From: Candidatus Lindowbacteria bacterium RIFCSPLOWO2_12_FULL_62_27
Lineage (GTDB): Bacteria > Lindowbacteria > 2-12-FULL-62-27
Length of the DNA: 64,000 nucleotides
Reading direction: 5' to 3'
NCBI GenBank assembly: GCA_001784175.1
Contig: MFPR01000006.1
Location: forward strand, 1 to 64,000
A model generated the notes under the pieces. That model did not search any database. It was not told where the DNA came from and saw only the letters and a list, made by a program, of their open reading frames with translations. Position numbers and translations under genes: made by a program. Of the stretch, positions 12,001 through 63,181 are shown in pieces (the first letter of the stretch is position 1; each line of letters begins with the position of its first letter).

Positions 12001-15000
12001 TCAGCAACGTGGACATATCCACGATCACCGGCGACAGCTTATGCTCCAACGGGCAATCCGGCATCAATCTACTCACCGGCTCGGACACCAACACGATCTT
12101 GGGCAACATCGCGGACTTCAACTCCGGCCGGGCCATCCGGCTGGACGCAAGCTCCTTCAACACCATCAGCGGCAACACGGCCGACAGCAACACGCAGGAG
12201 GGCATCGGGATATACCAGGGGTCGAAGAACAACACGATCAGCGGCAACACAACCAACAACAACATCGGCGGCATCAGTCTCTCTGCGAGTTCGTACAACG
12301 CCATCAGCGGCAATACCGCCGCCTACAATACAGGGAACGGGATTTCTCTGTCCTCCAGCTCGAACAACACGTTGAGCAATAATACCTGCACGTCGAACCT
12401 CTCCCACGGACTCGGAGTGCAAGGCGGGTCGGATACAAACACGGCGGCCGACAACACGATCCTTTCAAACTCCCAGAACGGGATATTCCTGTCTTCCAAC
12501 GCCAACGGAAATGTTTTCAGCGGCAACTCCATCCGTTTAAACGGACAGGACGGCATCGCCGCCCAATCCTCTTCGAACGGAAACTTTTTCCGCAATAATC
12601 TGATCCAGTCCAATACGCGCTCGGGAATCCGGATCGAGGCGAACGGCAACGAAGTCCATCAAAACGACATCTCCGGAAACGACACCGGCATCCGGATCGA
12701 ACTGTCTTCGTCGGGAAATGTCATCACCAAAAACAATCTGGCCGCAAACAACGTCAACCATGTTTACAATCCGTCCGGCAATTCCCAGACGCTGACCCGC
12801 AACTGGTTCGGGTCGACGGACGAGTCTGCCGTGAGCGCAAAGATCACCGATGCGGCTTCGACGTGGCGGCCCTACCGCCTCGGTGTTGTGGACACGGCTA
12901 CAGGCGCCGACACAACCGCCCCCGCGCCGCCGGCCGGGGTGACGCTGAACGCTTCCACGCCTGGGCAGATCACGGTGACGTGGACGAATCCTGCGACGAA
13001 TGAGGAGACGAACGGCGGCGCGGTGGGGTTTGCGGGCGTTCGGATTTACCGCCTGCGAAACGCCGTCGACACGACGCATTGGGCAAGCGCCCTCGCGTTC
13101 ACGACGACCGGCGCGAAATCGGACTGGGACGACACGGGCGCCAACGATGGTGCGACGTACTATTATCGCCTGACCTCGCGCGACGCGGCGGCGTTTCCGA
13201 ACGAGTCATGGTTCACCGACACGGTGTGGGCGGCGTCCGTCGCCCTCGCGCCGGAGACGATCTCGCTGGTTTCGGGCAATCACCAACTGGCGGCCGCGGG
13301 CGAGTCGTGCGGGGCGCCTTTGAAGGTGCGCGTGGTCGATCAAAACGGCAATCCCATCGCGTCGGAAACCGTCGTGTTATCCATTTCGTATCCGTCGGGT
13401 GGAGCGCTCACGTCGAGCGGGGCGCATCTGGGGACGATCAGCGGTCAGACCAGCACGACCGTGCTCACCGACACGGACGGCTATGTTGGCGATGGACTCG
13501 TCGTCGGCACGACCGGCGACGTCTACCGCGTGGAGGCGGAACTTGGCCGCGCGCCGGCGAAGGCCGTCACGTTCACCGCCTACGCGGACGGCCGGGACGC
13601 GCCCGATTCAAGCTGGCGGATGATGGGCGTGAACAAGCGGCTGTTCGACACTGTCACGGCGCCCTCGACTCTGCTTCACGCCGACCTCGGCGCGGGCACG
13701 CTGATCTATGAATGGCTGGCGAACGCGAACACGAACAGCTCCCTCAACAACTCGCGGTACTACGCGCCGTCCGAGATCGAGCGCGGCGACGCGTACTGGA
13801 TCAAACCCGGCGACGCGGGCGCGCAGAGGTGGGTGATCGACGAGGGGACGCAGGGCGAGGCCGGGTTCGACACGGTGGCCATCGCGCTCGACGCAGACAA
13901 CGGCGGCTGGAACCAGATCGCGTCGGGGCAGTATTTCTATGTGGACTGGCAAAAATCCGTGATGGTCGACACGGGGTTGCCGGCGTCCGGCCCGCAGGAC
14001 GACGCGTGGGTGAGCAATTATCTCTGCCACATGATCAGCGTCGACTCCGCGCATGCGGCCGGCGTCCTGAGCAAGATTCTGTATTGGTACGACGGCACGC
14101 AGTATCTGTGGGGCCCGAACACGCTGGCGTCCCCGAGCGGCGCGATCGTGGACGACACGTCGACCGTGCCGGGCGTTCAGATGAAACCGATGGTGGGGTT
14201 CTGGGTCAAGGCCAGTCAGGCCTGCACGCTATGGGTGCTACCGAACCCGGCGGAGGTTGCGGATACTGCCACCGTCATTTTGCAGCAAGCCCCGCGGCTT
14301 CTTTCCGCCGTGTACGGCAAGGTGGCCGCCTCCGAGAATGACTGGGCGATTCAGCTCATGGCGTCGGGCGGCGGGAAAACCGACGCGCAGAATTACGTGG
14401 GGGTGAAGCCAGGAGCAGCAGCAGCGCGGCTGGCGAGCGTGTACGAGCCGCCGCCGGCGGCGGGGGGATACGTGGCGGTGGCGGTGAGGCCCTCACCCCA
14501 ACCCTCTCCCGCAAGCGGGAGAGGGGGTGAGGACGCATGGATGGCCGCGGCGTTTACGGAACCCGTGGCGGCTGCGGACGCGAAAACCGCCGGCCGGTCC
14601 TGGGACGTTCTCGTGGCCTCCGACTTCGGCGGGCCTGTCACTCTCGCCTGGGACAACGTCCCAAACCTTCCGCACACCTACGAGGCGTATCTCGTTGGCG
14701 CCCCGGCCGGCCCCGTGAATCTGCGCCAATCGTCATCTCTGGTTTTAAAATCCGAAATCCAAAATCCAAAATCCAAAATCTCATTGACCTTGGCCGTGGG
14801 CCTGCCCGAATACCTCGCGCCCTTTTTAGCCCCGCCGTTCTCGAAGGAAAACGCCTTCGTCTATCCCAATCCCGGCCCGGACGGCGCAACGCAAACGATG
14901 ACGTTCAAGTGGGGTCCGACGGCGACGGGCGAGGTCAAGCTGAAAATCTTCGACGTGGGCGGGCGGCTGGTAAAGGAGTTCTCGGCCGACGCCGCGGCGC

Positions 15001-15119
15001 AAAAAATCGAGTGGGACTGCGCCAACAAGAGCGGCCAGAACGTCGGATCGGGCGTGTACATCTACATCCTGGAGTCCGGCGGAGACAAACTCGTGGATAA
15101 GCTGGCGATTGTGCGGTAG
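3..15119 (+). CDS. Giant secreted/surface modular protein, 5'-truncated by the window: 7 parallel beta-helix (NosD/CASH-like) + FN3 modules, FG-GAP/VCBS repeats, Ig-like domain, C-terminal FlgD/T9SS type A-like domain
   Basis: Frame is open from nt 3. Seven WYVND-initiated modules with GIYL..S.NNT..NN repeats, 7+3 WGDYDNDGDLDLAVSG repeats, YYYRVTA FN3 motifs, and C-terminal VYPNP...IFDVGGRLVK...SGVYIY. Confidence 0.85.
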   Translation, partial: TNFWRYSISGNTWETKAATPAGVSYGGALVYPATGDTLYALGGNGGNFWAYTLPAAYAGPIWYVNDTSTSGDSFTSAVGSDTNEGSASAPFRTIIAAMAAASEGDTIYIDAGIYDSYTWVSATETAGVNIDKDSITLVGKDSGSTIIDPPGASSISTMYGIYADTQVNLVIRGIGVTGAYHGIRFDNVDLSTISSDSVVSCGGYGMYLTSGSDTCTLTNNRTGGMSYGMYISASHFANIDSNDVRGNTRGIYLYQSYVDTVNNNNASSCNEGIYLDGARNCVISGNTASATTSSGLNLTGSDTNTVTGNNISSNTSVGIYLGGGRNNTLSNNTANSNSGEGIYLSGAQRTTMTGNTANQNGGAGGFRITGSSHFCTMTANIANSNNVRGVYVASSNSIVFTGNTTNSNANTGFAMDVVTDVRAANNVAKSNLNDGFGISSVANGVFEQNTLDSNAKYQIYLAGDVTSDTLQKNNVRTSPTNPDSGVYVTMNNTTQKFTLTRNWWNSTDTVQLKRMMFHPGGGDSIIWQPFRLGIVDTTAGADTTAPKAPDTVAVTPSDTSLIVSWAAVTALEEPNGGAVGLAGYRVYRSPAISDTSLWTQIAQVGSTADGWQDTSPFVGKIYYYRVTAFDGASPYINESFYSDSIPGGSAPYTSTTDWYVNDGSTAGDSYTYATGSDISGNGSKQTPFASIPKAMSVATAGDTVWIDAGLYDSYVTVNGTETAGVNIDKDSITLIGADSNATVIDPPGAKTLAGLYGIHADTQVNLTIKNIGVTGAREGIYLVNVDWSTVTSDSAGACGGAGIYLRAGSDTNTVTNNTTSSNSQYGIYLRSSSNNNTLTNNTARSNSLYGIYLNTTSNNNTVTNNMASSNAGYGIILQFGSNNTVTNNTANSNSLSGILLTSSSNNMVIQNSLDSNLQYQIRIDVSSSSDTVQKNNIRTSPTNPDSGVYNATGNTFDFTRNWWNTTDSGRIAQMLYDTGGVNRIIYQPFRLGEVDTTAGADTTAPDAPDTVAIVGTPDTSVIIEWAAVGALEEANGGAVGLSGYRVYRSETKDTSSWVKVAQAGSGTIRYQDTDVIPGRIYYYRVTAFDAATPYMNESFYSDSQPSDSASFSSAVNWYVNDTSVTGDIYTSAAGSDTSWGLGTAARPFASIPRAMQFATDGDTIFIDAGLYDSYVWVSGTETAGVNITKDSITLVGKDSASTVIDPPGAKTISTMYGIYADAQINLFIRNIGVTGAYDGIHFYNVDYSTIDGDSASSCGNYGFHLRIGSDTNTVRNSMAVANTSYGINLSSSSNNTVTNNMANSNAYGINLSSSSNNTVTNNTVNSSTNYGIYLTSSSNANTLTNNTASSNPNTGIYLVSSSNNTLTNNTANSTGGSGIRLQSSSNNTLTNNTTKSNSSHGIHLSSSSDANTLTNNTASSSGLYGIYLSSSSNNTVVQNDVRNNARYQVYIDGTSSSDTVQKNNLVMSGTNPDSGVYNSTTNTFDFARNWWNTVDTVAIGRKMFDTGYVNRIGYTPFRLGEVDTTAGADTTAPKAPDTVAVTPSDTSLIVSWSAVTALEEANGGAVGLAGYRVYRSPAITDTSLWTKAAEVGSGVTQWQDTSPFVGKVYYYRVTAFDAASPYINESFYSDSIPGDSAPYTSTTDWYVNDGSTAGDSYTYATGSDISGNGSKQTPFASIPKAMSVATAGDTIFIDAGLYDSFVTVNGTETVGVNIDKDSITLLGADSNATVIDPPGSASTNGLYGIYADTQTNLRIQNLGVTGAYDGVRFVNVDLSTVSGDSICDNGRNGIYLLNGSDNDAITNNTIVSNSTNGIYLLSSLGSTVSGNTANSNGGGRGILLQTSSMSTVSNNTFSSNGQDGISLQTNAETNTVSNNTISLNAVYGIYVLGCTGNTVIGNTVTSNGNKGIYLLNASVNTLAGNMVSLHGSPGIDLSSSSNQNVIRNNRVVSNQYGIRFWRSSYNRVIENTIDSNTTYQVHIDHGSGSDTTMKNNIIPSPANPDSGVLNTTGSSIDMTRNWWGTTDTGRIGQMMYDTGGVNRILYTPFRLGAVDTAAGADTTAPDAPDTVAVAPSDTSLIVSWSAVTALEEANGGAVGLAGYRVYRSPAISDTSLWTKAAEVGSGVTQWQDTSPFVGKVYYYRVTAFDAASPYMDESFYSDSIPGDSAPYTSQTDWYVNDGSTAGDSYTYATGSDVSGNGSKQTPFASIPKAMSVATSGDTIWIDAGFYNSIDTFSAGSETSVVTVTRDTIALIGKDSNATVLDPPGPKTQSGLYGVIVSGRTGATIRNLGVTGAYMGIRIQSSALCAVDADSACANGSVGIYLLNAAARQNTVTNCVVDGNTTSGIEVSSSASANTIQNNICNSNSVSGIRLTSSVTNTVVAGNTVNSNTYQGIYIQSSDSNTIRHNTVVSNPSIGIRLSSGSNYNVIYQNQITGNDTGIKISDTSSLNLIARNNLHGNTTSNLENAGGQSQTTARNWWGSTDSVAIAAKISDTASAWQPYRLGVVDTAAGADTVAPLAPDTVAASATAGAGTVLVTWSAVTANEDGIAGAAGVAQYRVYRAGVADTSSWTLVGTPTGTSFTDSGMAFGTTYYYRVTARDGAAFPNESYYSDSVAGATPSGFTKAAEPMGANEGVGDYSSIQWGDYDNDGDLDLAVSGRNNNVGGNYYELDIYRNNGGNSFTDVAEPLGANYGLYMRSSVQWGDYDNDGDLDLAVSGYTTQPATAVRLIVYRNDGGGSFTNVAEPLGAGAGLRESSIQWADHDNDGDLDLAVSGWDGTFRRLIIYRNNGAGSFTNMVEPLGANAGVDQGSIQWGDYDNDGDLDLAVSGWDGANHRFIIYRNNGGGSFTNAAEPLGANSGVYLSSIQWGDYDNDGDLDLAVSGAGTANRLVIYRNDGGGSFTNAAEPRGVNAGFIRSSIQWGDYDNDGDLDLAVSGDDGSNYRLIVYRNDGGNIFTNAAEPMGANKGVEQGSIHWGDYDNDGDLDLAVSGNDLTRKRLIIYRNDGIASPNQRPSAPTTNYPKGASFAQGDTVAFRWTKVSTDTTPDTGMTYNLRVGTASGKCDIVAADTNSADSVGHAPLGNVQNDTSAVLVKTLTVGQTYYWSVQAVDGAMMRSPWASEETFAVTLAPNTSGEWYVNDASTAGDSFSTAAGSDTSNNGTPTYPYRTITYALSQAKSGDTIYIDAGTYAETVVIDTDNVALIGKDSGAAVIDPPGAAGTAGLYGIYADTQIGLTIKNLGVTGAYNGIRFDNVDLSTLDQDSVSSCGASGIYLLNGSDTNTVSACMANANADNGIYLQASCGNSFGGNTANSNGTDGFEIADNSNNNTFTDNIAGYNPEVGIFINLSSNNIIKRNTTISNSQSGIWIDTGSGNLVSRNLVLANGWSGIGLDNSGANVVRGNEIRGSDTGLYIAGSSSSNYISRNNIFSNNASNILNLAGLAQSTLTRNWFGTADSAAIAAKISDTANAWQPYRLGIVDTAAGADTVAPNDPETVAASAASGAGTVLVTWSAVTANEDGIAGAAGVAQYRVYRAAVADTSSWTLVGIPTGTAFTDSGMTLGTTYYYRVTAWDGATFPNESYYSDSVVSATPTGWTKAAEPMGANAGVYYSSIQWGDYDNDGDLDLAVSGDDGTNKRLIIYRNNGGGSFTNVSEPMGANAGVYYGSIEWGDYDNDGDLDLAVSGTIDNGTNKRLIIYRNNGGGSFTNVSEPMGANAGVYYSSIEWGDYDNDGDLDLAVSGYDNSTNYRLILYRNDGIATPNVRPNAPALNYPKGDTVAGGDTVTFRWTKVSSDTTPDTGMTYNLRVGTASGKADIFAADTNSADSVGHAPLGNVQNDTYAYLVGANNNSPLPFGTYYWSVQAVDGAMMRSAWATEETFAVTPGPNTGGKWYVNDASTTGDSFTTAAGSDNSLTNNGSASLPYSTITKALSQAKSGDTIFIDAGLYSETVVIDSDFVALIGKDSNATVIDPPGAKTTSGLYGIYADTQTGLLIKNLGVTGAYYGIYFSNVDISTITGDSLCSNGQSGINLLTGSDTNTILGNIADFNSGRAIRLDASSFNTISGNTADSNTQEGIGIYQGSKNNTISGNTTNNNIGGISLSASSYNAISGNTAAYNTGNGISLSSSSNNTLSNNTCTSNLSHGLGVQGGSDTNTAADNTILSNSQNGIFLSSNANGNVFSGNSIRLNGQDGIAAQSSSNGNFFRNNLIQSNTRSGIRIEANGNEVHQNDISGNDTGIRIELSSSGNVITKNNLAANNVNHVYNPSGNSQTLTRNWFGSTDESAVSAKITDAASTWRPYRLGVVDTATGADTTAPAPPAGVTLNASTPGQITVTWTNPATNEETNGGAVGFAGVRIYRLRNAVDTTHWASALAFTTTGAKSDWDDTGANDGATYYYRLTSRDAAAFPNESWFTDTVWAASVALAPETISLVSGNHQLAAAGESCGAPLKVRVVDQNGNPIASETVVLSISYPSGGALTSSGAHLGTISGQTSTTVLTDTDGYVGDGLVVGTTGDVYRVEAELGRAPAKAVTFTAYADGRDAPDSSWRMMGVNKRLFDTVTAPSTLLHADLGAGTLIYEWLANANTNSSLNNSRYYAPSEIERGDAYWIKPGDAGAQRWVIDEGTQGEAGFDTVAIALDADNGGWNQIASGQYFYVDWQKSVMVDTGLPASGPQDDAWVSNYLCHMISVDSAHAAGVLSKILYWYDGTQYLWGPNTLASPSGAIVDDTSTVPGVQMKPMVGFWVKASQACTLWVLPNPAEVADTATVILQQAPRLLSAVYGKVAASENDWAIQLMASGGGKTDAQNYVGVKPGAAAARLASVYEPPPAAGGYVAVAVRPSPQPSPASGRGGEDAWMAAAFTEPVAAADAKTAGRSWDVLVASDFGGPVTLAWDNVPNLPHTYEAYLVGAPAGPVNLRQSSSLVLKSEIQNPKSKISLTLAVGLPEYLAPFLAPPFSKENAFVYPNPGPDGATQTMTFKWGPTATGEVKLKIFDVGGRLVKEFSADAAAQKIEWDCANKSGQNVGSGVYIYILESGGDKLVDKLAIVR
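14490..14532. repeat. REP-like palindromic element lying in frame within the giant CDS
   Basis: CCCTCTCCCGC-AA-GCGGGAGAGGG hairpin flanked by CCTCACC/GGTGAGG; same family as the hairpins at 21066-21179. Confidence 0.8.
14748..14782 (+). repeat. Heptamer tandem repeat (AAATCCA-like x5) within CDS
   Basis: AAATCCG AAATCCA AAATCCA AAATCCA AAATCTC, read as KSEIQNPKSKIS. Confidence 0.85.
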
Positions 15120-28685: not shown

Positions 28686-29936
28686 ATGGTGCGTGACGTC
28701 CTGCTCGTTCAGAAACGTGAACTGGAAGACCGGCTTCGGGAGGGCTATGTCGAAAGGGCCGCCAAGGCCGGCGCGTTCAAATCCCCGCTGATCCACGTCG
28801 TCCTCGGGCCGCGCCGGGCCGGCAAATCTTTTTTTGCGATGCATGGGCTCAAGAAAATGGGGGGGTTTGGCTACGTCAATTTCGATGACGAGCGATTGGC
28901 GGAGATCCGCGATTACGACGAAGTCGTCGCGGCCGTGGACGCGCTGTACGGCAAACCGAAACGCCTTCTGCTCGACGAAATTCAAAACCTGCCGAAGTGG
29001 GAGCTGTTCGTCAACCGGCTCCAGCGGCAGGGATACCGGCTCGTCGTGACGGGCAGCAATGCGCACCTGCTCAGTTCCGAACTGGCGACTCACCTGACCG
29101 GCCGGCACATGCCGGTGGTTCTGTTTCCTTTTTCCTTTTCCGAATATCTGCGGACGATTCCCGGGGAGATGACCGGGCGGGAGAAGGCGGAGGCGTTTCG
29201 CCTATATGCGGAGGAAGGCGGGTATCCTGAACCGATCATCAAAAAAGTGGACCGGCGGGAATATCTATCCACGCTTCTGAACGCCATCCTGTACAAGGAC
29301 ATCGTCAAACGCTTTCAGGTGCGGGCCGTTCAGGGACTGGAGAACCTCGTGACGTATCTCATGTCAAACGTCGCGAATGAATATTCCCTGAACTCCCTGG
29401 CCAACGTCACCCGCTGCCGCAGTCCCCACACCGTCGAGAAATACCTGCGGTATCTGGAGCAGGCCTTTTTGTTTTTCTCACTTAAACGCTTTTCCTTCAA
29501 AGTCAAAGAACAGATCCGCGCCAATCGCAAAATCTATTGCATGGACAACGGATGGATCACGTCCACCGCGTTCAGATTCAGCCCGGACCGGGGCCGGCTC
29601 TATGAAAATCTCGTCGCCATCGCCTTGCGCCGGCGCGAATTGGCCGGCGAATGCGGCGTTTTCTACTGGAAAAATCCCGAGCACGAGGAGGTCGACTTCG
29701 TCGTCAAGGAGGGATTGAAAGTCACCCGGCTGATTCAGGTCTGCGCGCGCGCGGACGACCCGAAAGTCCTCGACCGCGAAACGCGGGCTCTGCTCAAGGC
29801 CGGCAAGGAGCTCAAATGCGGCGGCCTCTACGTGCTCACCGAAGGCATGGAAAAGGAGAAGGAAATGAAATGGTTCGGCCTGCGGGGCAAAATCCGATTC
29901 CTGCCGATGTGGAAATGGCTGATGGACTGCGGTTGA
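28686..29936 (+). CDS. AAA+ ATPase (AAA_14 / DUF4143 type)
   Basis: GPRRAGKS, LLDEIQ, TGSN, LTGR, GGYP, C-terminal YEN...EVDFV. Confidence 0.9.
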   Translation: MVRDVLLVQKRELEDRLREGYVERAAKAGAFKSPLIHVVLGPRRAGKSFFAMHGLKKMGGFGYVNFDDERLAEIRDYDEVVAAVDALYGKPKRLLLDEIQNLPKWELFVNRLQRQGYRLVVTGSNAHLLSSELATHLTGRHMPVVLFPFSFSEYLRTIPGEMTGREKAEAFRLYAEEGGYPEPIIKKVDRREYLSTLLNAILYKDIVKRFQVRAVQGLENLVTYLMSNVANEYSLNSLANVTRCRSPHTVEKYLRYLEQAFLFFSLKRFSFKVKEQIRANRKIYCMDNGWITSTAFRFSPDRGRLYENLVAIALRRRELAGECGVFYWKNPEHEEVDFVVKEGLKVTRLIQVCARADDPKVLDRETRALLKAGKELKCGGLYVLTEGMEKEKEMKWFGLRGKIRFLPMWKWLMDCG

Positions 29937-30022: not shown

Positions 30023-32803
30023 TCACTTCACCGTGAGAAAGTCTCTCATCATGTCCGTCCGTTGCTTCCCGCGGTGGTCCTTGTCCATGATGTTCAAGAG
30101 ATCGTTCATAGACCGCAGCCGCCGATTTTTCCGCAGTGCCAAGAGCGCCTCTTTCTCGTCCCTTCTCAGAAACGGGATCGCGTTGATCCGTTCGTCCGAG
30201 GCCGATGTGAGGTTCAGAGGCGTTCCCCAGTCCCTCAGATACCCCGGGTCGACCGTGACCGTCCGGTCGCCGGTGACGTACAGAACCTGGCGGAACTGAT
30301 CCGGGAGCTTCTCCGAGTACTTGGTTTCAGTTGTCTCGTAGTACCGTTTCACGTCCTCCAGGAACGCATCGACCGACTCGAACGCTCCGACCTTGTGCCG
30401 GCGCATCATGATATAGAAAACCCACCATGGCGCCTTCACCCGGGCGATCAAGTCGTACTGAGACGCGTGGTTGAGGTCGAGCCGGTCCGGCACGGAAACA
30501 GCGGCCGCCAACTGCGCGGCGTAATACTCATGAACGGCCGTTTGAAAAGTCCTGTCGAGCGCGGGATTTCCGAGGGAGATGAAGTCCAGCCATGTGACGA
30601 CCCCGGACTTGCTTTGCGAGTTCAGGACGTCCTCCAGCGTCCGAAACGGTCCGCTCGTTTTCCGTCTTGCCAGAAGCACCTCCGCGTCCCGTTGCCGGAT
30701 CAGCGATATGGGCAAGAGAGCTGGCAGGTCGGCCGCATTGATGTTGACGCGGCTGTATATTCCGGCATCCTGCGGGTCCGGCGGCGCAACTTCCCGGGAT
30801 TCGACTTTCAGTTGCGGCAAAATTTCCTCGGAAAGCTTGCCCGTCCAGCTGAGGACGGCCCGAACATCCCTCGTGTCTCTGAATGCCCCGTGATTCGTGC
30901 GGAACGAGATGAGGTAATGGGCGCGTTCAGCATTCATTTTCCGAATCTTGACCAAGTCCGAAAACCCGGCGGAATTGGCGTCCAGGACGATGTCCGCCGA
31001 TTTCTCGTAACGAACCCAGCGCGCCCTGTGGATGAGCTGGTCCGCATAATATCGATCGACCGCTTTCCGGTACTCGCGGTCAAGGCCGGTGTCTCCGAGG
31101 GATACAAAATCCATCCATGGTGTCGACCCTGTTTGAACCAAGGCGGCCGGCATCGCCTCCATAATGTCCTGCAGGGTGCGGAAGGCGCCGGCGGCCATGC
31201 GTTGCCTGATGATTTTTGGCACAGATTTCTCCGAAATGAACGGCGTGGACATCAGTTCCCCCTCGCCGGCCCGGTTGATGTCGACGCGGCGGTATCGCTT
31301 GAGAAACTCCGCATCCGGCGGCGCTGCGTCGGGCGTTTCGACTTTCAGGCGCGACAGAACGCCGGAGAGCGTCGCGGACAGGCTGGTCATCATGGAGAGA
31401 ACGACTTCAACCTGCCGGACATCTTTGAACGCCCCCCGGTTATGCCGCCATGCGAGCAGAAAGAGCGCGCGTTTCTCACCCATGCCCGGGATTTTTACCA
31501 GATCCTGAAATCCGGCCGCATTCGCGTCGATCAACACGTCGCCTTCTTGAGGCGGCCTCAGTCCAACCCACCCCCAATACACCAGCGCGGCCACGCCGAC
31601 GACGGCTGCAAACTTGCCGGCCATCCGGACGGCTTGACGGCGAAAGCGGCGTCTTAGTGCGATGGACTCCCGCGACACGATCAACTTGCAGTGCGGCAGA
31701 GCTTCCGCCGAAACAAGCCCGCAGGCCCGGCAATATCCCCCGGCCGTGACGGATCCCGAGCATTCCGCGCAGACGGCGTCTCCGACGCCGGCCGCCGCCC
31801 TCCCCACCCCGCAGGCCCGCCGGCTCGATGCGCCGCCCTGATGGACCAGGCCGAGATAGCGCGTTTTCTTCAACACGCCCTGCTCATCCACCACCGCCCA
31901 TCTTTTGACAAACGGCAAATACACAATGCCGTCCAGCGCGTACCGGCGCGACGGATCGAACGCTTCGGCCGGAAGTGTCTCCCGGTCAGAAACGGCTTGC
32001 GCGAGGTCCCCCGCCGTCTGATACCGGTGCGCCGGGTTGCGCTGCAGCAGCCGGTCCACCACGCGCGCCAGGCCGTCGGGCGCGTCCGGATGGACGTCCA
32101 GCACGGAGGGCGGCTGTGACGTGGGGTCGATGATCTGCCGGATGAGACTGACCTGATTCTCGCCCTCGTAAGGAAGCCGGCCGGTCAGCATCTGAAATCC
32201 GAGAATGCCCAATGACCAAAGATCGGCCCGCGCGTCCACGGCCTTGCTGCCCGCCGCGCCGAACTGCTCGGGCGCCATGTAGGCCGGCGTCCCCATGTGC
32301 TGGCCGGTCATGGTCAGCGTGATTTCGTCCACGAGCTTGGCGATGCCGAAATCGATCATCTTGACCTCGCCCTGTTTCGTCAGGATGATGTTCCTGGGCG
32401 AAACGTCCCGGTGAATCACGCCCTGCCGGTGGGCGTAGGCGAGGATGTCCGCGGTGTCGCGCAGAATGCGCGCCGCAAGTTCCGGCGGCAGGGGCCCCGC
32501 GTGCCGGGACATCAGACTGTCCAGTCCTTCGGCGTCAATGAACTCCATCGCAAGGTATCGGTGTCCTTCTGATTCCCCCTCGTCGTAGAGCTGCGGGATG
32601 CCGGGATGGGAGAGCCGGCGGAGGGACGCGCACTCGCGGGAGAAGCGTTCCCGGAACCGTTCGTTGCGGCTGAGATGTTCGGGCAGGATCTTCAGCGCGA
32701 CCGTCCGGCCGCCGGCATCCTCGGCGAGATGGACAACACCCATGCCGCCGTGGCCGAGTTCTCTCAGAAGCTTATAGGGTCCAAACGCGCCGGCGGCTGT
32801 CAT
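30023..32803 (-). CDS. Hanks-type Ser/Thr kinase with Cys-rich segment, TM helix and six ComEA-like helix-hairpin-helix domains
   Basis: GHGGMG, VALK, HRDVSPRN, DFG, YMAPE; CAEC..CRAC; TM; six (I/V/L)(D/N)xNxA...L...R...G.F units. Confidence 0.85.
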   Translation of the reverse strand: MTAAGAFGPYKLLRELGHGGMGVVHLAEDAGGRTVALKILPEHLSRNERFRERFSRECASLRRLSHPGIPQLYDEGESEGHRYLAMEFIDAEGLDSLMSRHAGPLPPELAARILRDTADILAYAHRQGVIHRDVSPRNIILTKQGEVKMIDFGIAKLVDEITLTMTGQHMGTPAYMAPEQFGAAGSKAVDARADLWSLGILGFQMLTGRLPYEGENQVSLIRQIIDPTSQPPSVLDVHPDAPDGLARVVDRLLQRNPAHRYQTAGDLAQAVSDRETLPAEAFDPSRRYALDGIVYLPFVKRWAVVDEQGVLKKTRYLGLVHQGGASSRRACGVGRAAAGVGDAVCAECSGSVTAGGYCRACGLVSAEALPHCKLIVSRESIALRRRFRRQAVRMAGKFAAVVGVAALVYWGWVGLRPPQEGDVLIDANAAGFQDLVKIPGMGEKRALFLLAWRHNRGAFKDVRQVEVVLSMMTSLSATLSGVLSRLKVETPDAAPPDAEFLKRYRRVDINRAGEGELMSTPFISEKSVPKIIRQRMAAGAFRTLQDIMEAMPAALVQTGSTPWMDFVSLGDTGLDREYRKAVDRYYADQLIHRARWVRYEKSADIVLDANSAGFSDLVKIRKMNAERAHYLISFRTNHGAFRDTRDVRAVLSWTGKLSEEILPQLKVESREVAPPDPQDAGIYSRVNINAADLPALLPISLIRQRDAEVLLARRKTSGPFRTLEDVLNSQSKSGVVTWLDFISLGNPALDRTFQTAVHEYYAAQLAAAVSVPDRLDLNHASQYDLIARVKAPWWVFYIMMRRHKVGAFESVDAFLEDVKRYYETTETKYSEKLPDQFRQVLYVTGDRTVTVDPGYLRDWGTPLNLTSASDERINAIPFLRRDEKEALLALRKNRRLRSMNDLLNIMDKDHRGKQRTDMMRDFLTVK

Positions 32804-32810: not shown

Positions 32811-33872
32811 TTAAAGCTGAATTTCCCCCTGGTCGCCCAGCATGAGCCGGTAGCTGCCTTCGCGGCTTCCGTCCCGCACGATCCGCACGCCCCGGCCGAG
32901 TAGGCTGTCAGTGAGGGGGCGCGGGAGATTGAACAGCTCGACGTCCTCCATCAGGATGCTGTGATGGATTTCGCTGCGGATGATCCGCGCGTTCGAAGAG
33001 ATGGACGTGAACGGCCCGAGCGTGGCGTCCTCGAGGAAACAGTTCTCCCCGACGACACAGGGACCCGTGACGCGGCACCGCACGAGCCGGGTGCCGGCGC
33101 CAATCCGTACCGGCCCCCGGATTTCACACTGGTCGGTCGACCCGCGGATATCGTCGTCGCTCATTTCTTTCAGGACAAACCGGTTGGCCTCGAGAAGGTC
33201 CTCCTTCTTGCCGGTGTCTTTCCACCACTGCTCGATTTTCCGGTAGACGACTTTTTGCCCGGACTCGAGCAGGACCTGGATCGCCTCCGTGATTTCGAGT
33301 TCCCCGCGCCCCGACGGCTTCAGTTTCGGGATCGCTTCGAAAATCGCGGCGCTGAACAGATACACGCCCACCAGCGCCAAATTCGACGGCGGATATTTCG
33401 GTTTCTCAATCAGCCGCACGATCCGGTCTCCCGCAAGCTCCACCACGCCGAAGGCCGAAGGGTTGGGCACCGGCGCAAGGAGCAGGAGCGCGCCCGGCCG
33501 GTCCCGCTCAAATTGCGCGACCAGCGGCCCGAGCGGGTCCTTGATGAGATTGTCGCCGAGAAACATGAGAAAGGGTTCGCCGCCGAGATACGCTTTCGCG
33601 GTCCAGACCGCATGGGCCAAGCCCAGCGGCGCCTCCTGCGGGAGATACGTGACCTCGAGCCCGAACGCCGACCCGTCGCCCACGGCGGCTCGAATGTCCG
33701 CCGCCGTGTCGCCGACGATCATGCCGACCTGCCGGATTCCCGCTTGCGCGAGGGCTTCGAGCCCGTACGCGAGGATCGGTTTGTTGGCGATGGGAATGAG
33801 TTGTTTTGCCGACGTGTGAGTGATGGGCCGAAGCCGCGTCCCTTTCCCGCCGGCCAGCACGAGCCCTTTCAT
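32811..33872 (-). CDS. rfbA: Glucose-1-phosphate thymidylyltransferase, long form
   Basis: LAGGKGTRLRP.T...AKQL, LGDN, EKP, S.RGELEIT, WKDTG, beta-helix tail. Confidence 0.9.
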   Translation of the reverse strand: MKGLVLAGGKGTRLRPITHTSAKQLIPIANKPILAYGLEALAQAGIRQVGMIVGDTAADIRAAVGDGSAFGLEVTYLPQEAPLGLAHAVWTAKAYLGGEPFLMFLGDNLIKDPLGPLVAQFERDRPGALLLLAPVPNPSAFGVVELAGDRIVRLIEKPKYPPSNLALVGVYLFSAAIFEAIPKLKPSGRGELEITEAIQVLLESGQKVVYRKIEQWWKDTGKKEDLLEANRFVLKEMSDDDIRGSTDQCEIRGPVRIGAGTRLVRCRVTGPCVVGENCFLEDATLGPFTSISSNARIIRSEIHHSILMEDVELFNLPRPLTDSLLGRGVRIVRDGSREGSYRLMLGDQGEIQL

Positions 33873-43984: not shown

Positions 43985-44041
43985 GGGTTCAGTTGTTTTT
44001 TACTTGCATTACGGCCTTCAGGATGGGTACACTTGCCTATT

Positions 44042-44725
44042 ATGAGTACGACGACCATGCCTTCGGTTTTGCTGCAGCCTTCGCTGGTGCTCAACAGCGC
44101 CTTCCTGCCCGTGTCGATCGTCCGGGCCTTCGAGGCGCTGTGCCTGGTGGTGACGGAGAAGGCCGACATCCTGTCGGGAGATGACCGCGAACCGATCCGG
44201 TCACAGTTTCTGAGCTTTCCGCTGCCCCGCGTCATTCGACTGCTCAGCTTTTCCGGCATGCCGACCAACCCGTCCTGGTCCCGGCTGAAAGTGCTCTACC
44301 GGGACGACCAGACCTGCGCATGGTGCGGGGTCCGCCGGAAGATCGACCAGCTCGACTGCGACCACATCGTGCCGCGGTCGCGGTGGAAGGAGTGCCCGCG
44401 GGACGTCCGGAGAAAATACGAAGCCCTGCCCGGCAAACTCCAGAACGTCCACGCCCCCTGGAACTCCTGGGAAAACACCGTCGCCTCGTGCCGCCCCTGC
44501 AACGCCAAAAAAGGCAACCGGTTCCACTGGGAAATCGGCTTGAAACTCCTCTGGGAACCCCACGAACCGGAGTACGTGCCGTCGGTGGTCGTCTCCTTCG
44601 AGCGCGCGAGACAAATGGGCTGGCTGGAATATCTCCTGAACACGCGGGGCAAACCCATCTTCCCCTCGGCCGTCAAAATCCTCGCGCTCCCCCCGATCTC
44701 CCGCGCCGTTCATCCGCAACCTTAG
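44042..44725 (+). CDS. HNH endonuclease (McrA-like)
   Basis: LVLN..F.P; RD..CAWCG; DHIVPRSR; WEN.VASC..CN.KK. Confidence 0.9.
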   Translation: MSTTTMPSVLLQPSLVLNSAFLPVSIVRAFEALCLVVTEKADILSGDDREPIRSQFLSFPLPRVIRLLSFSGMPTNPSWSRLKVLYRDDQTCAWCGVRRKIDQLDCDHIVPRSRWKECPRDVRRKYEALPGKLQNVHAPWNSWENTVASCRPCNAKKGNRFHWEIGLKLLWEPHEPEYVPSVVVSFERARQMGWLEYLLNTRGKPIFPSAVKILALPPISRAVHPQP

Positions 44726-44739
44726 TCCGCACCCGGTAT

Positions 44740-44811
44740 TGGGGCGTCGCCAAGCGGTAAGGCAGCGGCCTTTGGAGCCGTTATTCGCAGGTTCGAATCC
44801 TGCCGCCCCAG
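44740..44811 (+). tRNA. tRNA-Gln (anticodon TTG); CCA not encoded
   Basis: TGGGGCG/CGCCCCA acceptor stem, GCGGC-CTTTGGA-GCCGT anticodon arm, GGTTCGAATCC T-arm. Confidence 0.96.
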
Positions 44812-44918
44812 GTTGTTGACACGTCAAGCAGTCATAGAAATTTGAAGAACTTACGAAACAAGACGGACTTCGAAACATTTTTACCCATCTCACGGAATCT
44901 CACCCGATCTCACGCTAT

Positions 44919-44942
44919 AGTTGGCACTTATTTGGCACCAAA
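44919..44942 (+). repeat. Left-end copy of the 24-bp motif AGTTGGCACTWATTTGGCACCAAA (putative integrase arm-type sites)
   Basis: Second copy at 63751-63774 with 1 mismatch; contains tandem TTGGCAC. Confidence 0.7.
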
Positions 44943-45067
44943 ATTCTTTCGTAAGCGCCCCTCGGGGTTTTCCATTCTCATGTCAGCTTGGCGATGTATT
45001 CTGGCTGACAACAACAAGAAAAATAGCTGGACGTAAAATATTTCAGGTTCATAAGTCGACGTTACTG

Positions 45068-46483
45068 ATGTATGATCCTGAATCTATGTCACGATCAAAA
45101 CATATCAAATCGCTACGGCGTATCCCGCAGAATAGTGTTGTCGATGACATAACATCAGTACACAGGGCTGCATCCCTGAATGTGGCCGATATCGAATCAG
45201 CGCATCGGTTCCACGTTTATTGCGCCCGATTCCCATCTGAAATCCCTCTGCAAGCCATCAAGGAATATTCAAAAGTCGGACAGATCGTCTTCGATCCGTT
45301 TTGTGGAAGCGGCACCACGTTGGTCGCCGGGTTGCTGATGGGCCGCCAAGTTTGGGGTTCCGACATCGATGAATTGGCGTCGCTCCTCTCATGGGCCAAA
45401 ACCCATCCCGACACTGAGAAAGCCTACGATGCTTTTTCGAATCAATATCAGAAAACTTTGTTTGAGACATTTGAATCTATTTCCGACCACATCGACCATG
45501 TGACATCGAATGTGACCAGCGCAGGGGAAATCCGCGTAAACGGATATTGTCTCGCTTTGCCTGAATTTCTTCCTTTAACCTACTGGTTTCCTCCCAAGGC
45601 CGTCGTGGGATTGGCGGCGATCTCGCAGTATGCGGCTTGCCGCCGCAAAAAAACTTTTCGAGTGGCGGCCGAACTGGCCCTTTCTGCGTCTATCATTTCC
45701 AAGTGGCCAAATACGGTGAGCTACGCCATGGACATCGATCACACGCGTCCGCACCGGAGGATTCGGCGAATTGGGCTTTCCAAAGTCTTTTCCATGTACT
45801 GCGGGCGTCTGGACCGCGTTCTTTCCGCGCTATCGGCATTGCGCCGCCGATACGAAGGAATGGGCATATCAAATAATCTGGATCAGTTGGCCAAAGTCTT
45901 TCCAAACATGGATGCCAGAAATTTGCATCAAGTATCCGATGAAAGTGTTGACCTGATCGTGACGTCGCCACCCTATTTTGACGCCGTTGACTACCCACGG
46001 TCCCATCGGTTTTCCCTTTGCTGGTTGAACAAGCCGGCGCCGCGCTACAATCGCTATATCGGGCTTTATAGAAATTCAAAGTTGAAACTTGATGAATGGT
46101 TGGCAGGCCGGGCGGAATTTATAAAAATATTGCCGGGGAAAGTGAGATCGGACGTTGCTAAAGGAAGCAAATGGGTAACGTTTTTTGAGGATTTGCGGCT
46201 GTCTCTTGGTGAAATGTATCGAGTTCTGGTCAGCGGGGGTACGGCGGTTTGCGTCATCGCGGACAATCAGGTCGGAGGAGTACGAATCGCCGCGCATCAG
46301 GCGATGGTCCATCTAAGCCGGGAGTGTGGATTCGAAGTCGTTCACGTGTCGAAACGGAAGATCGAACCGAGTAAGCGGCGTTTCCCATCCGGTACATTCG
46401 GGTTTGACGGGCCGATGCGGCACGAACACGTCATCGTTATTCGCCGCCCGCCGAAGTCGCGTATCAAAAAAGGCCAAGGCTGA
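45068..46483 (+). CDS. Amino-DNA methyltransferase (N4-C/N6-A type)
   Basis: H.YCARFP, DPFCGSGTT (motif I), VDLIVTSPPY (motif IV). Start is 45068 or 45086. Confidence 0.88.
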   Translation: MYDPESMSRSKHIKSLRRIPQNSVVDDITSVHRAASLNVADIESAHRFHVYCARFPSEIPLQAIKEYSKVGQIVFDPFCGSGTTLVAGLLMGRQVWGSDIDELASLLSWAKTHPDTEKAYDAFSNQYQKTLFETFESISDHIDHVTSNVTSAGEIRVNGYCLALPEFLPLTYWFPPKAVVGLAAISQYAACRRKKTFRVAAELALSASIISKWPNTVSYAMDIDHTRPHRRIRRIGLSKVFSMYCGRLDRVLSALSALRRRYEGMGISNNLDQLAKVFPNMDARNLHQVSDESVDLIVTSPPYFDAVDYPRSHRFSLCWLNKPAPRYNRYIGLYRNSKLKLDEWLAGRAEFIKILPGKVRSDVAKGSKWVTFFEDLRLSLGEMYRVLVSGGTAVCVIADNQVGGVRIAAHQAMVHLSRECGFEVVHVSKRKIEPSKRRFPSGTFGFDGPMRHEHVIVIRRPPKSRIKKGQG

Positions 46484-46489
46484 GAGTTC

Positions 46490-47107
46490 GTGTCAAAGCT
46501 GGCGCAAGATGCCCTGCTTCAATTACACGCTCATCTATTAAAAAGGGATCGCGAAGACGCGCCTGACGAAATGGCCGGCGTTCTTTTACCCTGGCTCATC
46601 GAACAACTCACAAGGGCGTATCCGGGTGTTTCCGATTCCCATCTGATCACCGAGTCTGGGGTGGATGCCCTTTGGGAATATCTGCGCCGCCCCGAACGAT
46701 ATCAGCCGGATCGCGCATCCCTGACGACCTATTTGATGGTGGCGGCCCGGGGAGACTTGTTGAACAAACTCCAAAAACAAAAGCGCATCGCGGTGCACGA
46801 AAAAAATTATGAGGAAGGTGTCGAACTTGAGGTGGCGGACGGGAATATGAATATGGGAGATGACTTGGAAGTCGTCGAAACCGTGGCGCAGGTGTCGCAT
46901 GCTGTGAATCAAAAAATACCAGACGGCGCGGACAGAAAGGTGCTTGAATTGATGATGAGCGGGGAAAGAAGGACTTCTGAATATGCCAAAGTCCTTGGTA
47001 TCGAGTTGCTGCCGGCGGACCGACAGGCGTGTGAGGTCAAGCGGGTGAAAGACCGCCTCAAAAAAGTTCTCATTCGTCTGAAAGGGGGTGATCTTCGTGT
47101 CGATTGA
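46490..47107 (+). CDS. Sigma-70/ECF-like RNA polymerase sigma factor
   Basis: Region-2-like DAL..YL.RP.RY.P.R.SL.TYL..AAR.DL.N; region-4-like HTH (EYAKVLGI...VKR.K.RL). Confidence 0.7.
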   Translation: MSKLAQDALLQLHAHLLKRDREDAPDEMAGVLLPWLIEQLTRAYPGVSDSHLITESGVDALWEYLRRPERYQPDRASLTTYLMVAARGDLLNKLQKQKRIAVHEKNYEEGVELEVADGNMNMGDDLEVVETVAQVSHAVNQKIPDGADRKVLELMMSGERRTSEYAKVLGIELLPADRQACEVKRVKDRLKKVLIRLKGGDLRVD

Positions 47108-47489
47108 ACAGGCCATGCCTCTTTTGGCGCGGAGGGCGGAATCCGACCCGCGTTTTATGGGCTGGATTTTGGCCCGATATTGCCAGATGGAAAAATTATC
47201 CATGAATGATCTGACACGCATTCTTGCTTGCACTAAAGAGACGGTCGATAGGCTTTGTATTTGTTTTCGCCCCCGGGCGGAGAATTTTTCAAGTGGGATC
47301 CGGCTTTTGGCCGAAAAATTTATTCTGTCCCCGATCGCGCTCGCTCAAATCGTGCGTCACGTGGATGCCACTGCGGCCATATCTGAAAAAGGGCCGTCAA
47401 AACAATCCATGGACGGTCTTCTCATGGCGGCGCGACCAAAAAAACATTTGCACAAGAAACCGCGCGACAAGGGCGGGAAATCCACATGA
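47097..47489 (+). CDS. Small hypothetical protein, possible HTH / anti-sigma partner
   Basis: Overlaps both neighbours; helical, HTH-like LTRILACTKETVDRL; basic tail. Confidence 0.6.
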   Translation: MSIEQAMPLLARRAESDPRFMGWILARYCQMEKLSMNDLTRILACTKETVDRLCICFRPRAENFSSGIRLLAEKFILSPIALAQIVRHVDATAAISEKGPSKQSMDGLLMAARPKKHLHKKPRDKGGKST

Positions 47490-48268
47490 ATATGAATCTG
47501 ATTGTCCGGTTGGCCGGAGAATTTTGGAGTCGGACGGGCGATCCGGACTCATTTCCAAGGGACATTGAATCGGCCGTATCTCTTTCGATTCCGATGGCCA
47601 TTGTTAAACTTCCGAGGCTTGAAGTGTCCGCGATTGCCCAGTGGTTTGATCAACGCGGCATCCAGCGTCCTTTTCCTCCCGATGGCCGACCTCTCGCGGG
47701 TTGTCTCATCGCCTTTCGAGGGCAGGCCATCGCCTTTCTGGACGGAGCGGAGCCGGCCGACGAACGAAGATTTAACCTCGCCCATGAGGTTGCGCATTTT
47801 TTGCTCGATTATCTGGATCCGCGCCTGCGCGCTTTGGACCATTTTGGCCCGAGTATACTGGATGTTCTCGATGGACTCCGGCGTCCCAGCGTAACGGAAC
47901 GGGTTGATGCTCTTTTGAGCCGTGTGGCCTTGGGTGTCCATGTCCATTTGATGGAAAGAGGACGCAGGCGTGAGGTCGATCCAGAATCTGTAGCTGTTTC
48001 GGAACACTGGGCGGATGTCCTGGCCTTCGAACTGCTGGCGCCGCGAAGGCGTGTGACATCGATAATTGGGCGCGCCGAATCGTCGTCGCTGGATAGCGTT
48101 TCTGATACCGGTGTCGAAAAGGCGGCGGGGTTATTGGCCAAAGAATTTGGATTGCCGCCTGGTGAGGCTGAAATATTGGCGAAACTGATTTTGAAACCGA
48201 AACACAAACCGCATTCCTTGCTTCACGAACTCGGATTCTCACCTGTAAAGAAAGGGGTGGATAGATAA
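47486..48268 (+). CDS. ImmA/IrrE family Zn metallo-endopeptidase
   Basis: RRFNLAHEVAH (HExxH) and E..AD.LA.ELLAP. Confidence 0.88.
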   Translation: MNMNLIVRLAGEFWSRTGDPDSFPRDIESAVSLSIPMAIVKLPRLEVSAIAQWFDQRGIQRPFPPDGRPLAGCLIAFRGQAIAFLDGAEPADERRFNLAHEVAHFLLDYLDPRLRALDHFGPSILDVLDGLRRPSVTERVDALLSRVALGVHVHLMERGRRREVDPESVAVSEHWADVLAFELLAPRRRVTSIIGRAESSSLDSVSDTGVEKAAGLLAKEFGLPPGEAEILAKLILKPKHKPHSLLHELGFSPVKKGVDR

Positions 48269-49492: not shown

Positions 49493-49563
49493 ATTTTTCG
49501 GATGTTGTCGAACTTTCCGTGGCCGGCGGGAATAAAGAGAGGACAACAAAAAAGGAGGCTGAC

Positions 49564-51456: not shown

Positions 51457-51458
51457 TC

Positions 51459-53168: not shown

Positions 53169-53175
53169 CCGCTCC

Positions 53176-53463
53176 ATGCCGGAAACCCACATCGTTTCGT
53201 ATGATATTCGGCATCCCAAGCGTCTGCGCCGCGTCGCCAAGACATGCCAGGACTTTGGCTGCCGGCGCCAGCTCTCCGTGTTTTTGTGTAGAATCTCTCC
53301 GGTCGACCTGATACGGTTAAAAGATCGATTGAATGAGATCATTGATCGCAAGAACGACCAGATTCTGTTCATCCGGCTGTGCCAAAGTTGCGGCGATGGC
53401 ATCGAATCGCTCGGTCAGCCGACCTTGCGTCACGATGTCACGGATGTCTGTCTGGTGATCTGA
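53176..53463 (+). CDS. cas2: CRISPR-associated endoribonuclease Cas2
   Basis: IVSYDI..PKRLRRV.K....G.R.Q.SVF. Confidence 0.95.
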   Translation: MPETHIVSYDIRHPKRLRRVAKTCQDFGCRRQLSVFLCRISPVDLIRLKDRLNEIIDRKNDQILFIRLCQSCGDGIESLGQPTLRHDVTDVCLVI

Positions 53464-53471
53464 GGGTGCCT

Positions 53472-58004: not shown

Positions 58005-58021
58005 TAGAATGACGGCGTCAT

Positions 58022-58306
58022 ATGAGAATTAAAGGCCTGATCTGGCTGGAAGAATATATCGATAAACTCGAGCACAAGCACCAATTGACGCAGGAGGAAG
58101 TCAGAGAGATTTTCAAAAACCAGCCTCGTTTCCGATATGTTGAAAAAGGCGCCCAAGAGGGGGAGAATGTGTATGTGGCGAAGGGGCAGACGGAGGCGGG
58201 TCGGTATGTGAGTGTGTTTTTTATTTATAAAAAAACGGGCTGGGCATTGGTTATCTCAGCGCGAGAGATGAAACCGAAGGAGAAAAAGAGATATGAAAAA
58301 AGGTAG
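58022..58306 (+). CDS. BrnT family toxin
   Basis: W......KL..KH.L..EE..E.F...G.T..GR......VISAR.M..KE...Y. Confidence 0.85.
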   Translation: MRIKGLIWLEEYIDKLEHKHQLTQEEVREIFKNQPRFRYVEKGAQEGENVYVAKGQTEAGRYVSVFFIYKKTGWALVISAREMKPKEKKRYEKR

Positions 58307-58568: not shown

Positions 58569-58689
58569 GACAAGCCAAAAATTCCGCTTGACGGTTGCCG
58601 GGCCATATCGATTTTTGCGCGGATGCGCTCAGACTCGAAGGGACACCCGTTGCGGCATAGGGCCGATGATGAAAAGATGAGAAAGAGTT

Positions 58690-61454: not shown

Positions 61455-61497
61455 ATTTGCTTTTAGGGTGATTCTGGCATATCAAACGAAATGTTGA

Positions 61498-63163: not shown

Positions 63164-63181
63164 GGATTTCGGCTCCATTTC

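Follow-up and report, generated by a model that had tools for sequence, protein, structure and literature searches.

The window analyzed here, a stretch of 64,000 nt from contig MFPR01000006.1 of Candidatus Lindowbacteria bacterium RIFCSPLOWO2_12_FULL_62_27, an uncultured groundwater or soil bacterium, carries on its minus strand an uninterrupted open reading frame (ORF) of 926 codons plus stop (30023..32803), with an ATG start. Its predicted product is a bitopic receptor kinase of the Hanks type, whose periplasmic part is built of six helix–hairpin–helix (HhH) repeats. A first-pass annotation of the window had noted a kinase domain, a Cys-rich segment, a transmembrane (TM) helix and six repeats, and each of these was recovered in place. 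The parts of the gene are as follows.

30023..32803, minus strand: whole gene, receptor-type Hanks kinase with HhH-repeat ectodomain (ORF list and translation; Pfam Pkinase and HHH_3)
32018..32776, minus strand: kinase domain, residues 10-262 (Pfam Pkinase)
32390-32413, minus strand: catalytic loop HRDVSPRN, with S135 at +2 and R137 at +4 instead of HRDxKxxN
31679..31957, minus strand: juxtamembrane domain, residues ~283-375 (family alignment and AlphaFold2 model)
31559..31615, minus strand: single TM helix, residues 397-415 (Kyte–Doolittle value 1.60)
31010..31558, minus strand: module A1, residues 416-598, with repeats 1 and 2 and a WMDFVSLG...YY helix (HHH_3)
31346-31540, minus strand: repeat 1, residues 422-486 (HHH_3, 29.1 bits; the only canonical hairpin, PGMGEKRA)
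31100-31294, minus strand: repeat 2, residues 504-568 (HHH_3, 33.0 bits)
30494..31009, minus strand: module A2, residues 599-770, with repeats 3 and 4 (duplicate of A1)
30800-30994, minus strand: repeat 3, residues 604-668 (HHH_3, 26.7 bits)
30563-30757, minus strand: repeat 4, residues 683-747 (HHH_3, 27.0 bits)
30026..30493, minus strand: module C, residues 771-926, with repeat 5, a LYVTGDRTVTVD segment and repeat 6 (structure matches)
30296-30490, minus strand: repeat 5, residues 772-836 (without a Pfam match when scanned alone)
30032-30226, minus strand: repeat 6, residues 860-924 (without a Pfam match when scanned alone; ends in ComEA-like DFLTVK)

The kinase domain was identified by Pfam Pkinase (PF00069) at residues 10-262, with E = 5.8e-47 and 160.7 bits against a cut-off of 31.7. 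Hanks kinases share a Gly-rich loop, the VAIK Lys, the αC Glu, the HRD Asp, a catalytic Asn, DFG and APE. The corresponding elements of the target, namely the GHGGMG loop, K38, E57, HRD (131-133), N138, DFG (151-153) and APE (177-179), are all present and invariant in the family alignment, as are the activation-loop threonines T162, T164 and T166. The P+1 loop, GTPAYMAPE, resembles the Ser/Thr kinase type. The first-pass annotation called this domain intact, which agrees with the Pfam score and with the other catalytic residues but not with the catalytic loop, where HRDVSPRN replaces HRDxKxxN.

A further domain separates the kinase from the membrane: a small β domain (strands 293-331) and, C-terminal to it, a CxxC...CxxC hairpin reminiscent of a zinc ribbon. 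The Cys-rich segment noted earlier corresponds to this hairpin: CAEC (345-348) and CRAC (358-361) contribute C345, C348, C358 and C361 (window 31721-31771), and these four cysteines are among 21 columns of the domain that are invariant in all eight aligned family members. Conserved patterns include Y..L..VYLP...RWAVV.E.G, then the invariant C.EC...C..CG. An AlphaFold2 model of the region (predicted local distance difference test, pLDDT, 82) shows the β domain, the zinc-ribbon-like hairpin and a long basic/TM helix. No Pfam family matched this domain, the best being DZR_2 at E = 0.12. Foldseek against the Protein Data Bank (PDB) gave nothing at E ≤ 0.001 for the juxtamembrane model, with weak matches to SH3-like barrels (PWWP, eIF5A, Tudor) at E > 0.7, and VIA-align was dominated by coiled-coil matches to the long helix (116-159 in model numbering).

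Residues 397-415 form the only strongly hydrophobic 19-mer of the protein. This helix is preceded by RRRFRRQAVR, with six Lys/Arg in the 15 residues before it and one after it, so by the positive-inside rule the kinase lies inside and the C-terminal 511 residues lie outside. Because the genome encodes secretins (one of 2201 aa), which imply an outer membrane, outside would mean the periplasm. An equivalent helix occurs in three database relatives (P0002, P0003 and P0004) and, in the corresponding position, in 15 of 16 paralogue kinases examined; in the other, K798, it falls below the Kyte–Doolittle threshold of 1.5. Hydropathy thus bears out one TM helix with a basic stretch on its kinase side, and the extracytoplasmic placement of the repeats given in the first-pass annotation is supported by the positive-inside rule and by conservation of the helix in the family members checked. 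Kinase and juxtamembrane domain are predicted to be cytoplasmic, and we regard the receptor-kinase architecture and its topology, as read from sequence, as highly probable.

The ectodomain spans 511 residues (416-926). Its repeats are paired into three modules, A1, A2 and C, and start at residues 422, 504, 604, 683, 772 and 860. A2 is 40.8% identical to A1 over 179 columns (E = 2.6e-33), and module C is the part of the ectodomain most conserved across the family. In the whole protein, HHH_3 (PF12836) matched four stretches with E = 3.9e-29 and 101 bits (cut-off 27). The E values for this match and for the A1/A2 comparison are beyond chance. Scanned singly, repeats 1-4 scored 29.1, 33.0, 26.7 and 27.0 bits, repeat 3 being just below the cut-off, and the matches mostly covered profile positions 4-48 of 65 and are therefore truncated. 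Two ComEA models of NCBIfam gave a split result: TIGR00426 scored 53.6 bits, marginally above its cut-off of 53.1, and TIGR01259 scored 70.5, below its cut-off of 152.35. Weaker matches came from Pfam families of the same clan, HHH_6 and T2SSK, at residues 686-735. The T2SSK match (PF03934; 33.4 bits, cut-off 24.2) overlaps the HHH_3 match of repeat 4, and T2SSK_1st was not among the matches listed in the Pfam scan of the whole protein. We read the T2SSK signal as probable cross-matching within the HhH clan.

For the fold of the repeats we used an AlphaFold2 model of the ectodomain made from a nine-sequence family alignment. Confidence is high in A2 and C, where block pLDDT is mostly 75-93. 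In A1, with repeats 1 and 2, it is low (pLDDT < 50), the alignment rows having fallen on A2 instead. VIA-align was run against 48,161 PDB representatives. The best match was Tex (3bzc) to model residues 215-342 (Z 8.6, root mean square deviation (rmsd) 2.4, 77 residues aligned). Repeat 3 aligned with Geobacillus stearothermophilus ComEA (8dss_B; Z 8.5, rmsd 2.1, 64 aligned, 28% identity), and repeat 6 with the ComEA-related 2duy (Z 7.6, rmsd 2.2, 62 of 65 aligned). Other matches were PsbU with the repeat 3 region (6j3y_U; Z 6.5, rmsd 4.0, 75 aligned), XcpX (5vtm; Z 5.7, rmsd 2.8, 67 aligned) and GspK (3ci0; Z 5.3, rmsd 2.3, 64 aligned) with repeat 5, TEFM with repeat 4 (5ol9; Z 5.2, rmsd 2.3, 59 aligned), and the HhH region of Pol III alpha (Z 5.4-6.2). 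Thus, all four well-modelled repeats (3-6) land on HhH-fold domains, including repeats 5 and 6, which Pfam missed. The Z values run from 5 to 8.6, and for small helical domains a Z below ~8 may mean merely a common arrangement. Because the result is consistent across four repeats and is joined by the sequence evidence, we take the model-based HhH assignment of repeats 3-6 to be sound, in agreement with the fold named in the first-pass annotation. Foldseek of the ectodomain model against the PDB gave nothing at E ≤ 0.001, with weak matches to XcpX, ComEA and PsbU at E 0.2-2, probably because the query was a multi-domain chain of 511 residues. By sequence, the best PDB match was EEPD1 (E = 3e-4), whose tandem HhH region covered repeats 2 and 3 and the linker between them; Bacillus subtilis ComEA came next (E = 0.009). 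The end of repeat 6, DFLTVK, resembles the C-termini of ComEA proteins (KPYLEVK, KPHITVK). On this evidence, every ectodomain repeat descends from a ComEA-type (HhH)2 DNA-binding domain.

To place the protein in a family, we searched with its ectodomain. When residues 400-926 were compared with a word-indexed collection of 5.8 billion proteins, four matched, the query among them, all with Pkinase and HHH_3. Exhaustive HMMER against 1.84 billion cluster representatives gave 323 matches at E ≤ 1e-3, only four of them at E ≤ 1e-30. A kinase domain was present in 5 of 151 proteins (the 150 best HMMER matches plus P0002); the Pfam scan of 56 of the 150 best matches (P0005-P0060) found the remainder to be tandem HHH_3 proteins without a kinase. 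Fusions among these tandem relatives include SLBB, giant secretins, metallo-beta-lactamase, GmrSD_C and PLD nuclease. In the ESM Atlas, the matching clusters were all HHH_3 proteins without a kinase and scored below 0.9, so that they serve as leads only. The first-pass annotation knew of no characterised protein built this way, and this stood up: the combination is rare, and we found no description of a kinase with a ComEA or HHH_3 sensor in the full-text literature, a coverage that omits most subscription journals and so gives no proof of absence.

Two of the apparent database relatives (P0002 and P0003) proved to be paralogues from the same genome (G000, 4.4 Mb; its contigs C2, C20, C26, C28 and C33 are cited here), and Blast against this genome found five paralogues. 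These are listed below with K421, a shorter kinase of the same cluster.

Contig C20: paralogue of 941 aa (P0003), 38% identical to the target, with module C duplicated
Contig C33: paralogue of 772 aa (P0002), 45% identical to the target
Contig C33: paralogue of 798 aa (K798), 43% identical to the target
Contig C33: paralogues of 610 aa and 619 aa, with the same juxtamembrane domain as the target
G000:C33:63533-64798 (L035:5533-6798), minus strand: K421, 421 aa, kinase, one TM helix and one canonical (HhH)2

At least eight kinases of the genome have HHH_3 ectodomains, including a 522-aa kinase and the 421-aa K421. The genome also holds three kinases with DUF1802 ectodomains, a kinase-less protein with a TM helix and two HhH, PP2C, an FHA-GAF-cyclase protein and a PLD-HHH_3 protein. 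Sensors vary among the paralogues (1, 2, 4 or 6 repeats, TPR, DUF1802). The target alone has a duplicated module A, which brings it to six repeats, and it lies outside the C33 cluster. Outside this genome, full-length relatives came from a single record among 185,579 species representatives, contig CAZHRJ010000061.1 of a related metagenome-assembled genome (MAG), which bears a similar kinase cluster; its relatives include proteins of 769 aa (48% identical to the target) and of 1028 aa with added TPR. Among 41 genomes (G000 and 40 relatives) the ectodomain was found only in G000 and G002. G002 belongs to the family of G000 but to a different genus; the two other members of that family are 88% and 81% complete. 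All further relatives among the 40 are related at domain level only, so the lineage is very isolated. The target is thus, as judged from its sequence relatives, a member of a lineage-restricted, expanded paralogous receptor-kinase family rather than a singleton.

K421 deserves separate mention. Its domain (LPGVG...IPGIGEKKFEKL) scores 73.5 bits with HHH_3, is up to 63% identical to proteins named ComEA at source, and K421 itself has a counterpart of 79% identity in the related MAG. A search with the domain only returned 48 proteins, one of them a kinase (from the MAG); SLBB accompanies HHH_3 in most of the others, several of which bear the name ComEA. Of the 120 kinases closest to K421, two carry HHH_3: P0152 (the MAG) and P0154 (a third metagenomic bacterium), so that beyond G000 and the MAG one metagenomic protein has the short form with a single domain. 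K421 would be a better candidate DNA-binding receptor kinase than the six-repeat target, and the cleanest one found. As a separate observation, DUF1802 follows the TM helix, and so is predicted to be extracytoplasmic, in sister kinases at L035:14490-16331, L036:764-3412, L038:4024-5646 and L002:3221-5038. A sister kinase of the MAG has DUF1802 and then BRCT in a predicted extracytoplasmic position, which would be unusual for BRCT.

Among the closest counterparts are the PknB/Stk1 PASTA kinases. These likewise begin with a cytoplasmic Hanks kinase that has activation-loop threonines, join it through a juxtamembrane linker to one TM helix, and carry small sensor domains in tandem outside the cytoplasm. 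The PknB/Stk1 model NF033483 was the best NCBIfam match, with 260.3 bits over residues 10-273, that is, the kinase part only and below the cut-off of 450. Yet the Pfam scan found no PASTA (PF03793) in the target, which differs in its HhH-fold repeats, its β domain with CxxC...CxxC hairpin and its HRDVSPRN loop. ComEA is the periplasmic or surface DNA receptor of natural transformation. The target shares with it (PF12836; structures 8dss, 8dfk and 2duy) the repeat fold (Z 8.5 and 7.6), the HHH_3 profile and, by a narrow margin, TIGR00426, and the extracytoplasmic site, but differs in its kinase fusion, its six repeats instead of one domain, GhG at 1 of 12 hairpins, the lack of SLBB and a TIGR01259 score below the cut-off. 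The paralogues of the C33 cluster and C20 and the MAG proteins have the same kinase clade, juxtamembrane zinc ribbon, TM helix and A/C modules; the short paralogues differ in having one or two better-preserved HHH_3 domains. Non-kinase tandem HHH_3 proteins have similar two-domain HhH units of ~125 residues, 23-43% identical to module A. Unlike the target, these proteins and EEPD1 (9yi2) give strong HHH/GhG signals, are fused to nuclease, secretin or SLBB parts and have no kinase. PsbU, a photosystem II subunit, and GspK/XcpX, a pseudopilus tip protein, share a degenerate HhH-like fold outside the cytoplasm (Z 5.3-6.5), but differ in context and lack both a kinase and a tandem array. The target therefore appears to be new in a specific sense: a receptor Ser/Thr kinase of the known bitopic type with a new type of sensor and an unusual catalytic loop.

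The genome is well equipped with DNA-uptake genes: it has DprA, four ComEC-like ORFs, ComEA-like neighbors of ComEC and a secretin of 2201 aa that bears three HHH_3 domains. Passage of DNA through the periplasm is therefore expected. The ComEC-like ORFs (PF03772) are separate, measure 701-1099 aa and lie on contigs C2, C33, C26 and C28; two of them adjoin ComEA-like HHH_3 genes. The secretin is encoded at G000:C26:95228-101833 (L040:3228-9833, minus strand), with its HHH_3 domains at the C-terminus, and similar giant secretin-HHH_3 fusions of 1519-3242 aa occurred among the database matches to the ectodomain.

What might the array bind? We propose that it would hold a long periplasmic polymer, for which DNA, with a probability of roughly 0.4, is the leading single candidate because of the descent of the repeats, their charge, the array geometry and the DNA-uptake gene context. 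The ectodomain has a pI of 9.3 (76 Lys + Arg versus 68 Asp + Glu), repeats 2, 3, 4 and 6 have pI 9.7-10.2, and repeat 1 keeps a basic pair (K-R) in PGMGEKRA. Since 11 of the 12 hairpins have lost GhG, binding could not work exactly as in ComEA. Each degenerate repeat would instead bind weakly, and the six together would bind by avidity. The polymer would gather several receptors, which would phosphorylate one another on T162/T164/T166; the activated kinases would then phosphorylate cytoplasmic targets. Candidate partners are the PP2C phosphatases and the FHA protein of the paralogue cluster. This scheme of ligand-driven clustering and trans-autophosphorylation is one that we infer.

If a second, weaker hydrophobic stretch at residues 465-483 (VEVVLSMMTSLSATLSGVL), whose Kyte–Doolittle value of 1.53 is near the 1.60 of the accepted TM helix, also spanned the membrane, most repeats (2-6) would be cytoplasmic and would touch cytoplasmic DNA. 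We consider this very improbable, as the stretch is Ser/Thr-rich and falls within repeat 1, where the HhH fold has its second hairpin and helix, its equivalent is polar in P0002, P0003, P0004 and the target's own A2 copy, and all paralogues have just one TM helix between kinase and sensor. As for the kinase, the absence of the catalytic-loop lysine (S135 at +2) weighs against this scheme and invites the view that the target is a pseudokinase with little or no catalytic activity, which would serve its receptor family as scaffold or decoy; Lys at HRD+2 (HRDxKxxN) is kept in 118 of the 120 database kinases nearest K421. Yet 15 of 17 kinases of the group, in the two genomes examined (loci including L035, L036, L038, L001 and L002), have Ser/Thr at this position (HRDxS/TxxN), and Arg or Lys stands at HRD+4 in the target's subfamily. 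HRD+4 is the position used by tyrosine kinases, and R137 may by analogy substitute for the missing lysine. The conserved S/T+2, R/K+4 pattern suggests a working variant rather than decay, and with K38, E57, D133, N138, D151 and the activation-loop threonines invariant in the family, the kinase is predicted to be active and a pseudokinase is unlikely.

The nature of the ligand is more evenly balanced. The HhH fold may have been kept and re-used for something other than DNA, as a scaffold that binds protein or another ligand, with the kinase reporting the state of a partner; ComEA-like proteins, the HHH_3 tail of the secretin, another periplasmic partner or an envelope polymer might serve. We hold such a role to be about equally likely, since 11 of 12 hairpin signatures are lost. 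This was seen when the six repeats were aligned with canonical domains of the same genome (K421 and C26_161), both of which have the two hairpins of the signature PG(I/V)G-x-KK-A ... G-I-G-E-KK. In the target, GhG is canonical only in hairpin 1 of repeat 1; the other eleven positions read FIS, KMN, LIR and so on. The earlier remark that several repeats lack GhG was therefore correct as to the loss but understated its extent. Even the repeat 1 hairpin varies among family members (KNMGADRA, KGLSDNCA, KHMSDARA); the positions invariant in the family are those of the core (N, A, L, R-H, G-A-F) and not of the hairpins. A study of Vibrio cholerae ComEA (PMC3879209) reports that G60V/E, K63A and K62/63A impair transformation, that K62/63A abolishes DNA binding in vitro and that variants lacking either HhH motif are not wild-type-like in an Escherichia coli localization assay. 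The Lys pair needed there is not conserved in the repeats of the target. Several further observations count against DNA. HHH_3 matches to repeats 1-4 reach only 26.7-33 bits, whereas the genome's own K421 domain scores 73.5 and one of its ComEA-like proteins 90.4; scanned singly, repeats 5 and 6 gave no Pfam match at E ≤ 1; T2SSK matches both the whole protein and repeat 4. The extracytoplasmic HhH-like proteins PsbU and GspK/XcpX are among the structural matches, repeat 5 aligning best with XcpX/GspK, and the caution on Z values given above applies. To our knowledge, PsbU and GspK do not bind DNA and have other roles. The net charge of the ectodomain is just +8 over 511 residues. The strong diversification of sensors among the paralogues would fit divergence of ligands. 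None of the 10 public runs listed, all DNA from groundwater and soil metagenomes, is an RNA run. Finally, the gene stands behind rmlA, an envelope sugar-nucleotide gene, outside any competence context; its location in neither a competence nor a defence operon leaves the link to competence signaling or phage DNA entry, put forward in the first-pass annotation, as speculation. Set against all this, the partner of a non-DNA scaffold is hypothetical, the ectodomain is basic and repeat 1 keeps its canonical K-R hairpin, and all identifiable relatives of the repeats occur in DNA-handling contexts. DNA stays the leading single candidate for the ligand.

That the whole family forms a periplasmic DNA-sensing receptor-kinase system, with ComEA-derived sensors wired to Hanks kinases in an isolated lineage with a very large set of DNA-uptake genes, is a bolder and rather doubtful proposition. 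If it holds, the paralogues would be tuned from tight single-domain binding (K421 type) to avidity-based multi-repeat binding, the six-repeat protein would report the amount or length of periplasmic DNA and couple it to phospho-signaling, and no earlier bacterial receptor kinase would be known that responds to DNA outside or entering the cell. As far as we know, the known regulation of competence answers quorum signals, chitin or starvation, not DNA itself. Little is understood of how bacteria detect DNA that lies beyond the cytoplasm, and a receptor kinase with a ComEA-derived sensor would open the question to direct tests; one genome offers a ready series, from a paralogue with one canonical domain through forms with two domains to the target with its six degenerate repeats. 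Even without a DNA ligand, the family would exemplify how a DNA-binding fold can be multiplied, eroded and turned into a periplasmic sensor, and it also shows a conserved kinase variant lacking the catalytic-loop lysine.

The immediate neighbor upstream, on the same strand and 8 bp away, is the following gene.

32811..33872, minus strand: rmlA, RmlA-long glucose-1-phosphate thymidylyltransferase (TIGR01208, 427.4 bits, cut-off 320)

The sole promoter-like site on the minus strand (34013-33986, a consensus match only) precedes rmlA, so rmlA and the kinase gene are probably co-transcribed. We draw no functional link between them, because the paralogues examined have no rmlA next to them. Downstream, a convergent gene (28686-29936, plus strand) encodes an AAA_14/DUF4143 ATPase; its entire length is matched by PDC-S01, a candidate defence family of PADLOC (346 bits). 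The kinase gene itself is not assigned to a defence system on the strength of its own PADLOC matches, PD-T4-6, mad6 and MkoA, as these cover the kinase domain only. PD-T4-6, a single-gene defence kinase, gave 278 bits over residues 7-276, in a library without a cut-off.

Elsewhere in the window, a giant ORF of more than 5,038 aa (3-15119, plus strand), open at the contig start, has NosD/right-handed beta-helix, FG-GAP and Ig-like domains and probably encodes a surface adhesin-like protein. At the other end, positions 44000-64000 form an island of low GC content (0.52-0.55, versus ~0.63 elsewhere) with these features.

44921-46483: N6/N4 DNA methylase
49519-51456: HerA-like ATPase
51459-53168: Cas4-Cas1 fusion
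53379-58004: 1541-aa protein with a C2c1/Cas12b-type RuvC domain
59202-59604: short array of ~5 units with a 73-bp period

The island looks like it holds a CRISPR-Cas locus of type V whose effector is larger than usual.

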